A DNA stretch of 32,000 nt from Bdellovibrionales bacterium (GCA_963692945.1 OY843585.1:660001-692000), one strand, 5' to 3'; shown: positions 13,405 through 16,192, numbered from the stretch's first letter. Notes: a model not told the origin generated them from the letters alone. Program-made: numbers and translations.

Positions 13405-13830
13405 ATGTTATTAACAGATTCTTGTATTTTTGAAGAAATTAAAGCAGAAGTTAATGCTTTACCGGGTAAGCTCAATTTTAAAATTGGAGAGGCTGCTAAA
13501 ATACTTGGATTAGAACCTCATGTTTTACGTTATTGGGAAGAAGAGTTTAGTCTTTTAAAACCTAAAAAATTTTCAAACAATCAAAGGCTTTACTTTAGAA
13601 AAGATATGGAAATTTTATTTTTGATTAAAATTTTACTTTATGAGGAGAAATTAAAAATCAAAGGTGTGCGTAAGTATTTACCACAATTTTATAATCAATT
13701 TAAGGAAAACAAAATAAAAGAAGTTAAAACTATCAGCCCTCAAAAAGATATTATAAAAAAAGAGGTTAAAAGTCTTTTAAAAGAAATATCCTCCTTGAAA
13801 TCTCAAATAGGTGATGATGGGTTTCTCTAA
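13405..13830 (+). CDS. MerR-family transcriptional regulator
   Basis: N-terminal winged HTH (FKIGEAAKILGLEPHVLRYWEEEF) followed by a coiled-coil region. The last 6-7 codons lie inside a 30-nt direct repeat (see findings). Confidence 0.8.
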   Translation: MLLTDSCIFEEIKAEVNALPGKLNFKIGEAAKILGLEPHVLRYWEEEFSLLKPKKFSNNQRLYFRKDMEILFLIKILLYEEKLKIKGVRKYLPQFYNQFKENKIKEVKTISPQKDIIKKEVKSLLKEISSLKSQIGDDGFL

Positions 13831-14085
13831 ACTCTAGTTCGGTTACTTAGATATTTTCTTACTCTTATTTTAACGAGATTTGAAGAACTTACCCATATGC
13901 GAAAAACAGTAAGTTTTTTCTATACAAAAACCAGAGTTGCGAAAACCAGTAGGTTTTCTCTATGTTAAAACTTTTATTTTTCACGAGATTTGAAGAGTGT
14001 CCCCTTTTACGATGAAAAGCTCGTGAAAAATAAAAGTTCACACACTAGAGTTTTGTAAATAGAGAAAACCTACTGGTTTCATAAG
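13811..14085. repeat. Palindromic repeat element copy R1 (mosaic of modules)
   Basis: It shares about 170 nt of near-identical sequence with 15921-16119. It contains the AAACTCTAGTTC terminus (13829-13840) and the long arm GGTTACTTAGATATTTTCTTACTCTTATTTTAACGAG. It also holds two tandem GCGAAAACCAGTARGTTTT modules, the core hairpin, and an outer 20-bp inverted repeat (13943-13962 / 14060-14079). Confidence 0.9.
13969..14038. other. Core hairpin of the repeat family: perfect 19-bp stem plus a 32-nt loop conserved at three loci
   Basis: AACTTTTATTTTTCACGAG (13969-13987) is the exact reverse complement of CTCGTGAAAAATAAAAGTT (14020-14038). The loop ATTTGAAGAGTGTCCCCTTTTACGATGAAAAG is identical at 16048-16079 and 24794-24825. 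Confidence 0.9.
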
Positions 14086-15810
14086 TTATTTTTCAAAAAC
14101 TTTTGAGCAATAGGGCAATCTTTGTATGGCTGATTTGTAAATCCATTTAAAGGATTTTTTTAAGTCTCTCTCTACTCCCTCACCCTTATAATACATTTTT
14201 CCCAACTTATATAACTCATATTGAGCATAAAAAAAGTTTCGCAGAGCTGATTCGTAAAACCATTTAAAGGATTTTTTTAAATTTCTCTCTACTCCCTCAC
14301 CCTTATAATACATTTTTCCCAACTCATATTGAGCATAAGGAAGGTTTCGCAGAGCTGATTCTTGAATCCATTTAAAGGATTTTTTTAAGTTTCTATTTAC
14401 TCCTAAACCATTATAATACATTTTTCCCAATTCATATTGAGCATAAGAAAAGTTTTGCAGGGCTGATTTTTGAAACCATTGAAAAGATATTTTTAAGTCT
14501 CTCTCTACTCCCTCACCATTATAATACATTTTTCCCAATTCATATTGAGCATAAGAAAAGTTTTGCATGGCTGATTCGTGAAACCATTTAAAAGATTCTT
14601 CTAAATTTTGCTCTACTCTCTCACCTTTATAATACATTTTTCCCAATTCATATTGAGCAAGAGGATGGTTTTGCATGGCTGATTTGTGAACCCATTTAAA
14701 GAATTTTTTAAAATTTCTTTCTACTCCCTCACCCTTATAATACATTTTTCCCAAGTAATATTGAGGAATAGGATGGTTTTGCATGGCTGATTTGTGAAAC
14801 CATTTAAAAGATTCTTCTAAATTTTGTTCTACTCCATCACCATAATAGTATTGCCTTCCCAATTCATATTGAGCAAGAGGATGGTTTTGCATGGCTGATT
14901 TGTGAATCCATTTAAAAGATTCTTCTAAATCTTGCTCCACTCCCTCACCACTAGAATACCTCATTCCCAACTCATGTTGAGCAATAGGAAAGTGTTGCAT
15001 GGCTGATTTGTAAAACCATTTAAAAGATTCTTCTAAATCTTGTTCTACTCCATCACCATAATAGTGACGTCTTGCCAGCTCATATTGAGCAAAAAAATTG
15101 TTTTTATGAGCAGAATCTTTAAATTGTTTAAAAGATTTCTCTTTTACATGGACTAAATTTTTCCTCGTTACAGTTTCTCCTATATCACCAGCAATAAGAT
15201 CTCTTAGATGTTTTATCTTTATTATTGATACACCATAAGAAGTCCCCTCAAAAAACACTCCAACAACATGTCCTTCACTATCTAAAGCGGGACTACCACT
15301 TGCACCCTTTAAAGAAAAATGATTTACAAAATAAGAATACTGATAAGCATCCTCATGGTAAATATTTCCTATTTTTTCAATTCTTTTAAAAGAACCAGAA
15401 GGATAACTATATGTAAAAAGATTTTCACTTATTTCCACTGGGTTCTCTCTTATGCTGAGATAATGACTTGAAGATTCTTCCGTTTCAAGAATGGCTAAAT
15501 CATATAAAGCAGATAGAGCTAGAATTTTCTTTATCCGAAAGACAGATGAATTGTCTTTTTGAAGTAAACGAATATGTTTTATATCAGAGTCTTGCAGATT
15601 TTCTATAACATGAAAATTAGTCACAAAATATTTTGAATCTATAAAAAATCCAGTCCCCCGATTAAAAGAAGTTTCTATACGCCATATAGATTTTTCTGCT
15701 TGTAAAGGATGAGATTCAAGAACTTCAGTTGATTGATGAGCAGATAGCTCATTTTGAGCTGTTGCTAGAATAGAAAAACTCAATAAAAAAAGAACAATAA
15801 AAAATTTCAT
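14086..15810 (-). CDS. Secreted trypsin-like (S1 family) serine protease fused to nine C-terminal Sel1-like repeats
   Basis: Start moved to ATG 15810 (MKFFIVLFLLSFSILATAQN, a classic signal peptide); the track start at 15900 is a TTG. Catalytic-triad contexts are TNFHVIEN (His), LYDLAILE (Asp) and KGASGSPALD (Ser). Nine 36-aa units of the form AQYELGKMYYKGEGVERNLKKSFKWFxxSA are Sel1/SLR-type. Confidence 0.85.
   Translation of the reverse strand: MKFFIVLFLLSFSILATAQNELSAHQSTEVLESHPLQAEKSIWRIETSFNRGTGFFIDSKYFVTNFHVIENLQDSDIKHIRLLQKDNSSVFRIKKILALSALYDLAILETEESSSHYLSIRENPVEISENLFTYSYPSGSFKRIEKIGNIYHEDAYQYSYFVNHFSLKGASGSPALDSEGHVVGVFFEGTSYGVSIIKIKHLRDLIAGDIGETVTRKNLVHVKEKSFKQFKDSAHKNNFFAQYELARRHYYGDGVEQDLEESFKWFYKSAMQHFPIAQHELGMRYSSGEGVEQDLEESFKWIHKSAMQNHPLAQYELGRQYYYGDGVEQNLEESFKWFHKSAMQNHPIPQYYLGKMYYKGEGVERNFKKFFKWVHKSAMQNHPLAQYELGKMYYKGERVEQNLEESFKWFHESAMQNFSYAQYELGKMYYNGEGVERDLKISFQWFQKSALQNFSYAQYELGKMYYNGLGVNRNLKKSFKWIQESALRNLPYAQYELGKMYYKGEGVERNLKKSFKWFYESALRNFFYAQYELYKLGKMYYKGEGVERDLKKSFKWIYKSAIQRLPYCSKVFEK
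14113..15090. repeat. Nine tandem ~108-bp coding repeats (Sel1 units) with long near-identical nucleotide runs
   Basis: Recurrent CCATTTAAAAGATTCTTCTAAATYTTGYTCYACTCC and CATTTTTCCCAAYTCATATTGAGCA blocks at about 108-bp spacing. The last unit has a 3-codon insertion (YELYKLGK). Confidence 0.85.
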
Positions 15811-15920
15811 AACATTAAAATCTTTCTTTTTTCCTAATAATATTAAAAAAAATAGAGATGCATTATGATCGAAAAAATAAGAAAATACCATTTTTTTCAA
15901 TGAAAATGAATTTTTTTCCT

Positions 15921-16192
15921 GTGATGATGGGTTTTTCTAAACTCTAGTTCTACCCTTGTGCGAAAACCAGTAAGTTTTTTCTATACAAAAACCTTTTTGC
16001 GAAAACCAGTAGGTTTTCTCTATGTTAAAACTTTTATTTTTCACGAGATTTGAAGAGTGTCCCCTTTTACGATGAAAAGCTCGTGAAAATAAAAGTTCAC
16101 ACACTAGAGTTTTGTAAAAGAACATCTCTCCTGTGATGAAAAGCTCGTTAGAATAAGAGTAAGGAAATATCTAAGTTTTTGAACTAGAGTTT
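15921..16192. repeat. Palindromic repeat element copy R2, a complete unit with perfect 12-bp terminal inverted repeats, preceded by an 18-nt duplicate of the merR 3' end
   Basis: AAACTCTAGTTC (15939-15950) and GAACTAGAGTTT (16181-16192) are exact inverted repeats. The interior matches R1, including the hairpin (stem 16029-16047 / 16080-16097 with a 1-nt bulge). The right part carries the long arm CTCGTTAGAATAAGAGTAAGGAAATATCTAAG in inverted orientation. Confidence 0.9.

Follow-up and report, generated by a model that had tools for sequence, protein, structure and literature searches.

Among bacterial repeats, the Correia elements of Neisseria are inverted-repeat transposable elements of miniature size (MITEs) found at gene 3′ ends, and the IS231-derived elements of Bacillus cereus are mobile insertion cassettes (MICs). 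Hairpins can also be acted upon directly, by insertion sequences (IS) of the IS110/IS1111 type on repetitive extragenic palindromic (REP) hairpins and by integron integrases on attC. QMITE1 and QMITE2 of Coxiella are MITEs at gene 3′ ends, one hairpin serving as an IS target (PMC5896051), and the qnrS2 mobile insertion cassette element (MICE) carries a nested MITE (PMC5444012). Composites of miniature inverted-repeat elements derived from Tn3 (TIMEs) have 38-bp Tn3-type inverted repeats, target-site duplications (TSDs) of 5–6 bp and demonstrated transposition (PMC4133298). The locus considered here lies in a 32,000-nt stretch of DNA from a Bdellovibrionales bacterium (GCA_963692945.1, OY843585.1:660001-692000), termed the window, whose coordinates are counted from its first letter. 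In it, a spacer of 2,353 nt separates the convergent genes of a MerR-family regulator (merR, 13405-13830, + strand; Pfam MerR_1, E 1e-17) and of a 214-aa protein (16184-16828, − strand). The sole gene inside encodes a protease with Sel1 repeats, and is bracketed by direct repeats and by the two arms of a long, split hairpin. The approximately 2.36 kb at this junction is an insertion in the window's lineage, real but largely of a familiar, repeat-driven kind, and its repeats form a new family of an already known kind of element in an uncultured lineage with a reduced genome. On balance we favour its description as a mosaic repeat nest, resembling MITEs and bacterial interspersed mosaic elements (BIMEs), that captured a protease paralogue through repeat-mediated recombination or template switching.

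The insertion is evident from five related genomes (L081, L082, L083, L093/L094 and L095/L096), which were reached through MerR homologues with identities of 79, 78, 71–74, 59–60 and 59%; PheT, compared with species-representative genomes, matched at 34–35% identity at best, too distant for an empty-site comparison. All five carry a pheS-pheT-ihf-merR block followed by a convergent gene within 0–38 nt, and in all five both the protease and the repeat are absent from the merR junction. Four of these genomes have a gene of the 214-aa type, its orthologue, directly after merR; in L095/L096, merR abuts a histidine-kinase gene instead. The genes of 225, 229 and 309 aa in L081, L082 and L083 align to the 214-aa protein with 52–60% identity, and the 216-aa gene of L093 is assigned to this type by position and size alone. 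Because the five relatives show a tight, empty junction, the segment was gained in the window's lineage, and the empty site to which a cassette-like insertion, as proposed in an earlier, sequence-only reading of this DNA, should correspond is therefore found.

The ends of the neighbouring genes record the same direction of change. The 214-aa protein stops at least 10 residues early, at ...WKCKDKKL*, the tail that follows WKCKDKK in the relatives being missing, and its last codons and stop (KL*) are encoded by the repeat end AAACTCTAG. The tail of merR (GDDGFL*), on the other side, is native, the C-terminus being kept in relatives that end in DDGFI*, DKDFL* or DKDFI*. A further copy of the repeat, at 24684-24877, adjoins a glutaredoxin gene whose product ends in ...EFMTKL* where relatives have ...VFIES* or ...SYISD*. 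L081, L083 and L093 lack this copy in the corresponding spacer, and the spacer alignment with relatives breaks exactly at 24684, fixing the copy's left boundary. Ends of the family containing CTAG hence supply a Lys-Leu-stop tail to two neighbour genes, and the stop codon within CTAG re-terminates the genes that are invaded. With the 214-aa and glutaredoxin tails replaced by repeat ends and the merR tail native, the change is one of insertion.

Within the spacer, direct repeats and the split hairpin are superimposed. A 30-nt direct repeat, composed of the end of merR and a 12-nt element terminus (AAACTCTAGTTC), occurs at 13811-13840 and 15921-15950 (both + strand; 29/30 positions equal), its first 20 nt being the final codons of merR (G D D G F L stop). 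It is accompanied by a repeat body of 170 nt at 13890-14059 (X) and 15951-16118 (X'; both + strand), with an identity of 95.3%. A 49-nt stretch between the 30-nt and 170-nt repeats is present in the left copy only and corresponds to the left arm of the long hairpin. The left arm proper, which starts with the terminus AAACTCTAGTTC, spans 13829-13877 and pairs without gaps with the right arm at 16144-16192, outwards from the loop remnants, in 43 Watson-Crick and 4 G-T pairs out of 49. The arms are separated by 2,266 nt and form the longest inverted repeat in the window (53 nt at 87% in the repeat search). Of the loop, 9 nt are kept on each side, ATTTGAAGA at 13878-13886 and GATGAAAAG at 16135-16143, and the central 14 nt are absent; the same 9 + 9 nt border an intact 32-nt loop in three other hairpins (13988-14019, 16048-16079 and 24794-24825). 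The arms have the appearance of a single long hairpin, from a dispersed family, that was interrupted in its loop. Much of this was anticipated by the sequence-only reading, whose structural statements all hold. Its direct repeat of about 200 nt at 13811-14059 and 15921-16119 is recovered as the two repeats above plus the 49-nt insert, and its arm complementarity of 43/49 holds exactly for Watson-Crick pairs. The two loop halves are confirmed, with the right half at 16135, one base from the 16134 first given, and deletion of 13841-15950 in silico does leave 12 + 242 = 254 nt between 13829 and 16192.

The body X is itself composite. It contains two terminator-like stem-loop modules (13899-13923 and 13939-13963), a hairpin at 13969-14038 with a 19-bp stem and the intact 32-nt loop, and an inverted element end at 14045-14053. 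Immediately after X, and just 3′ of the protease stop codon, an inverted copy of module m2 (14060-14080, − strand; inverted repeat of 28 nt at 89%) pairs with 13943-13963, so that 13937-14085 forms a hairpin of ~140 nt right after the stop codon, with free energies of -56.7 and -59.2 kcal/mol and z-scores of -9.3 and -11.8. The short modules read GAAAACC-AGTA-GGTTTTC followed by a T-rich run, which has the look of an intrinsic terminator. These patterns exceed chance: the 25-nt module pattern is observed 4 times vs 0 in shuffles, AAACTCTAG occurs 7 times vs 0.59 expected, and inverted matches in 20 Markov shuffles reach at most 49.7 bits vs 64 bits for the related arm pair.

A third layer of repetition is formed by the 10-mer CCTGTGATGA, found in the window only at 15918 and 16130 (0.02 expected). 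Its first copy ends the upstream region of the protease gene (15811-15927, − strand). The second (16130-16139, + strand), 212 nt on, meets the 3′ half of the loop in a microhomology junction, with GATGA common to both, where the intact loop reads ACGATGAAAAG; from there the last 9 loop nt and the right arm run on as 16135-16192 (+ strand), the end of which gives the Leu and stop codons to the 214-aa gene. The 17 nt preceding the two CCTGTGATGA copies are only 65% similar. At the other junction, GTGATGA is common to the merR end and the end of the protease upstream region.

Two features of the internal repeat bear on how the segment arose. In the right copy, 20 nt of merR are fused to the element terminus, and this junction could arise nowhere but here. 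There was therefore at least one local duplication, later than the arrival of a repeat beside merR, and the structure is not a clean, one-step cassette insertion. Furthermore, the two 170-nt copies differ unevenly, with 7 differences in the first 47 nt vs one A-run indel in the last 123 nt, which points to partial gene conversion or a mosaic origin rather than a single clean duplication.

The repeats constitute a palindromic family that is dispersed and specific to this genome. In consensus form, a copy combines a stem reaching 49 bp with a conserved 32-nt loop, short terminator-like modules and ends that read (C)AAAACTCTAG; the three intact hairpins agree at every base of the loop. The window holds three sites with full or nested copies and two end remnants. 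The intact third copy (24684-24877, + strand; 194 bp), free of cargo, lies between a histidine kinase gene and the glutaredoxin gene; it has the same loop, the same (C)AAAACTCTAG ends and one short module, with the parts in another arrangement. Its left 32 nt equal the inverted right end of the 170-nt unit, and the reverse complement of its right arm (24822-24875) is 91% identical to the left arm at 13829-13877. Both this copy and a 180-bp unit at 15939-16116, formed by X' together with 15939-15950 and its inverted AAACTCTAG ends, carry inverted (C)AAAACTCTAG ends on either side, and arms of 49 nt belong to the B type. Stem types A and B differ by changes that preserve pairing, CACGAG/CTCGTG vs AACGAG/CTCGTT and CTTTTATT/AATAAAAG vs CTCTTATT/AATAAGAG. 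Across the three loci the modules m1 and m2, hairpin A and the B arms appear in varied order and orientation. The sequence-only reading had considered that arms standing as independent elements at many unrelated sites without cargo would speak against a bracketing cassette. This is seen in part, in the cargo-free copy and in two remnants of the element end (both + strand), a degenerate solo end AAAAAACTCTAGTCAGATATTTCT at 2424-2447 and the degenerate TAGTCTAGTTCAGTT at 13000-13014 in the pheT-ihf spacer.

Searches beyond the window returned no relatives of the family. The loop-plus-stem pattern had 0 matches in contigs of species-representative genomes and in metagenome contigs, blastn against plasmid and phage collections gave no match to the repeat, and ~80 kb of DNA from the related genomes contained neither a repeat homologue nor a comparable hairpin. 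A looser pattern gave 7 matches in viral contigs, all in coding sequence and with 3/20 flank complementarity, and a degenerate stem-loop module pattern gave one match in an unrelated, GC-rich contig; both were set aside as chance. No homologues of the small open reading frames (ORFs) inside the element were found, a spurious 62-aa ORF of the repeat giving no candidates in the protein database. An Rfam scan of the window gave nothing at gathering thresholds, and only sub-threshold look-alikes of microRNA precursors, generic for long hairpins, so that the idea of structured RNA genes in the repeats is unsupported. No TSD is seen flanking the outer element, X' or the copy at 24684-24877, although old insertions or palindromic targets could mask one.

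The cargo is a resident gene of this genome. Its product (14086-15810, − strand; Pfam Trypsin_2 5e-15, Sel1 3e-84) is a trypsin-like serine protease that is secreted and contains nine Sel1 repeats; it measures 574 aa when started at the ATG at 15810, bears a signal peptide and keeps the conserved His, Asp and Ser, and the gene looks intact. Its four best homologues (P0121-P0124; 439–484 aa, 60–67% identity) are all encoded on one contig of 1,561,448 bp; as the MerR, 214-aa and glutaredoxin proteins of the window are encoded on a contig of equal length, we infer the same genome, and the gene is one of at least 5 paralogues there. Translation of its upstream region gives a frame, ...SSQEKNSFSLKKMVFSYFFDHN...LLGKKKDFNV, that matches N-terminal ORF extensions of P0121, P0123 and P0124; the extensions LLGKKKGFNV and MSQQEKNSFSLKRNGVFLFFDHN of the paralogues correspond to ...SSQEKNSFSLKKMVFSYFFDHNASLFFLILLGKKKDFNV upstream of the window gene. 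From this match it follows that the gene's own upstream region, conserved among the paralogues, extends at least to 15927. The next best homologue, at 45% identity, sits among at least 12 Trypsin_2+Sel1 genes arrayed in tandem in the related genome L091 (L091 1-21605), where a 38-nt motif of the protease upstream region is also found upstream of the paralogues. GC content is flat across the segment, at 27–34%. A foreign origin of the cargo finds no support, given this uniform composition and the four paralogues on a single contig as closest homologues; by sequence, the cargo is an endogenous paralogue. P0124, which ends in ...RKL*, may also abut an element end, though its protein sequence gives a weak hint only.

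Several further observations concern the protease family. The 108-nt Sel1-coding units (14105-15160) are up to 86% identical to each other, and the window protein has 574 aa vs 439–484 aa in the four paralogues, which suggests recent expansion or homogenisation of the internal repeats. The protein (14086-15900), in a 574- or 604-aa version, is absent from the protein collection, in which the neighbouring MerR, 214-aa and glutaredoxin proteins are present; the source record may call the gene with another start or leave it unannotated. The L091 lineage expands the Trypsin_2+Sel1 family by tandem duplication, unlike the dispersed copy in the window. The protease probably acts on host or prey.

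From these observations we infer a recombination mechanism and an order of steps. A long-hairpin element would have inserted at the junction of merR and the 214-aa gene, after which a protease unit, bringing along its upstream region and a terminator module, would have interrupted the hairpin in or near the loop. The segment from the merR end to hairpin A would then have been duplicated through microhomology, and finally one arm may have disappeared from the copy in which a long palindrome at short range would otherwise have formed. A dedicated integrase or cassette machinery would not be needed. A Pfam scan was applied to window ORFs of at least 80 aa outside the dnaJ-dnaK-relA genes, the pheS/pheT core and two topoisomerase VI genes; no integrase, transposase or other recombinase was found in the bracketed 2.1 kb or among these ORFs of the window, and the latter included no REP-associated tyrosine transposase (RAYT; TnpA of the IS200/IS605 type). 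No tRNA or transfer-messenger RNA (tmRNA) that could serve as target is present in the window. Simpler schemes were tried and rejected. Neither a single tandem duplication between GTGATGA sites nor a single template switch accommodates the 49-nt arm present in one copy and the 65% similarity before the CCTGTGATGA copies. An IS5-like target duplication of CTAG fails as the palindrome runs on outside CTAG, which hence belongs to the element, and an IS608-like TTAC target at the left junction occurs once and has no TnpA.

A number of points weigh against the stepwise, repeat-driven origin. No model that was constructed explains all junctions in fewer than three steps, the 49-nt left arm being in the left copy only. 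The evidence consists of one cargo locus and three to four element copies of a 1.56-Mb genome. The nearest relatives are only 79% identical in MerR, which leaves a wide time window for the insertion, with intermediates missing. In addition, the arms, 2.27 kb apart, pair better than the intact copy's own stem does, and such complementarity would be in line with a hairpin interrupted once and recently, or with a protein that recognises both ends. Finally, the terminator role that the repeats are given below is a prediction from sequence and fold.

Several alternatives were weighed. In the most plausible of them, which we nevertheless regard as a lesser possibility, 13829-16192 would be a mobile insertion cassette, that is, a non-autonomous transposon with inverted ends of 12–49 nt, mobilised by a transposase encoded elsewhere and carrying the protease as a passenger. 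Long inverted ends do bracket a passenger gene that lacks a transposase, the same ends bound the cargo-free 194-bp copy in the manner of MITE/MIC pairs, the relatives have empty sites, and there is precedent in MICs with a nested MITE (PMC5444012) and in TIMEs that mobilise the DNA between them (PMC4133298). However, no end shows a TSD, the scanned ORFs include no transposase, a second copy of the unit is not known, and the internal copy of the merR end shows the structure to have been built at least partly at this site. The same internal junction, which excludes a simple foreign insert, tells against a hairpin-loop-targeted insertion, in which a structure-specific recombinase, or hairpin cleavage followed by break repair, would have let 2.2 kb into the loop. 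This explanation accounts for the 9 loop nt kept on each side with loss of the central 14 nt, for arms that still pair at 43 Watson-Crick and 4 G-T positions of 49 and for the GATGA and GTGATGA microhomology junctions on the right, and in Coxiella the QMITE2 REP hairpin is an IS1111 target (PMC5896051). It is unlikely all the same, as it has a single example beside three uninterrupted hairpins with the same loop, no recombinase among the scanned ORFs and a left junction devoid of microhomology. A more far-reaching form of it, in which the hairpin with its conserved 32-nt loop is a dedicated docking site and paralogues of an effector-like, secreted protease are shuffled within a reduced and symbiont-like genome by insertion into such loops, through a structure-specific recombinase encoded elsewhere or programmed breakage and repair, we consider a long shot; if true, it would amount to a gene-shuffling system distinct from integrons and IS-derived cassettes, and to a new mechanism for mobilising effector genes.

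Site-specific integration of the Campbell type would place a 30-nt att core at the merR 3′ end, like that of elements at tRNA gene ends, and make the 2,110 nt between the cores the integrated unit. The 30-nt direct repeat (29/30) does restore the 3′ end of the target gene, and removal of one unit leaves a simple junction, yet no integrase lies in or near the unit, the protease is the only gene between the repeats, and this cargo is an endogenous paralogue of host-like composition. Resumption of the repeat for 170 nt after a 49-nt gap is also atypical for att cores, and the core edge has its GTGATGA in common with the region upstream of the protease, for which a microhomology junction is the better fit; integration of this type is thus quite improbable. 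Of the acquisition readings first put forward for this locus, insertion and an interrupted hairpin stand, whereas the Campbell-type event and a loop insertion in a single step do not, given the lack of a recombinase among the scanned ORFs and the copy of the merR junction inside. Least credible of all is an ancestral protease with repeats that was lost independently in the relatives. The distance of the nearest relatives (MerR identity of at most 79%) and their reduced, loss-prone genomes would allow for it, but five genomes at graded distances all have a tight junction and intact gene tails, the neighbouring genes in the window have tails cut or replaced by repeat ends, and the repeat family is undetected in the relatives or the databases searched.

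The favoured repeat nest can be set against the described systems in more than one respect. Correia elements and QMITEs are similarly small (130–250 bp) and non-coding, and multi-copy as the family is within the 32-kb window, with terminal inverted repeats, long hairpins and large/small or nested versions; like the window family, they lie in 3′ untranslated regions (UTRs) and spacers, overlap ORF ends and alter C-termini. The window family differs in having no visible TSD, no known parent IS and no sequence similarity to entries of the databases searched, and in a 49-bp stem that is unusually long, around a 32-nt loop conserved base for base. With the MIC/MICE elements the segment shares inverted ends (13829-13877 and 16144-16192) around a passenger gene without a transposase, a smaller nested repeat and an empty site in comparators. 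Unlike these, it is seen in one copy, shows no TSD, contains in its interior both a 170-nt direct repeat and a duplicated fragment of the neighbouring host gene, and carries a resident paralogue rather than an accessory gene common to replicons.

Enterobacterial BIME/REP sequences resemble the locus as species-specific mosaics of short palindromic modules that lie downstream of genes in varied order and orientation, with presumed roles as terminators or in mRNA stabilisation; the window modules are longer, however, and we know of no BIMEs that enclose genes. The likeness to TIME composites lies in two copies of a small repeat that flank a segment with a functional gene, although here the 170-nt copies are direct repeats nested within a further inverted pair of arms, and are known from sequence alone. 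With integrons and attC sites the locus has in common an imperfect palindromic site and a single gene unit, for which recombination of a folded single strand is conceivable. It differs in that the window contains no intI and no cassette array, and in that the protease gene has its own upstream region; an R/L box pattern of attC was not recognised by eye, no formal test having been made.

With regard to present function, modules and hairpins sit at the very places that call for terminators, after merR (+), after the protease gene (−) and after the 214-aa gene (−), with strong RNA folding on both strands. The repeats likely act as transcription terminators or insulators between tightly packed, convergent genes, a role also suggested for bacterial repeats elsewhere, and the module at 14060-14080 is probably the terminator of the protease gene. 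Promoter-like sequences were not enriched in a scan, which gave no convincing sigma-70 site either within the repeats or upstream of the protease. The genome, of ~1.56 Mb and ~30% GC, is related to Bdellovibrio-like bacteria and abounds in Sel1, ankyrin and TPR genes. Genes can thus still be gained by a genome that is reduced and tightly packed, and a private palindromic family can seed recombination at gene ends, rewrite the C-termini of neighbours and enclose a copy of an expanding protease family. Such a family also provides a handle for tracing rearrangements and the spread of paralogues in an uncultured lineage. The related genomes carry ankyrin, TPR and Sel1 genes too (L093 1-851 and 11994-12426), and the contig of L082 comes from an assembly of more than 141,000 contigs (GCA_029782575.1), probably of a eukaryote genome project; the lineage may be host-associated.

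The remainder of the window beyond the 214-aa gene has features of its own. Two ornithine/arginine/DAP-decarboxylase-like genes stand in tandem at 17009-19746 (484 and 423 aa; 73–86% nucleotide identity in blocks), where L081 has one such gene at the same position and L083, L093 and L095 have none. A 55-nt unit repeated three times head to tail (16895-17068; 100%, 100% and 94%) overlaps the start of the first. Three genes at 19743-23243 have no counterpart in the syntenic region of any of the five relatives, and no palindromic element flanks them. They encode a YdcK/bactofilin-like beta-solenoid protein (19922-20353, with 18-nt periodic repeats), a 148-aa ORF and a 747-aa ORF without a Pfam match. 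The spacer before the 148-aa ORF holds a heptanucleotide microsatellite, (AGGCTAA)n, of about nine units (20458-20520). A 96-nt direct repeat of 80% identity, with one copy inside the 3′ part of the 747-aa gene (22751-22846) and the other just downstream (23262-23357), looks like a partial duplication of the end of that gene. Topoisomerase VI is uncommon in bacteria. Its subunits B and A are encoded at 25289-28808, after a small HNH endonuclease gene, and this order is kept in L083, L093 and L095; in L081 an uncharacterised gene of 67 aa takes the position of the HNH gene, and L082 ends earlier.

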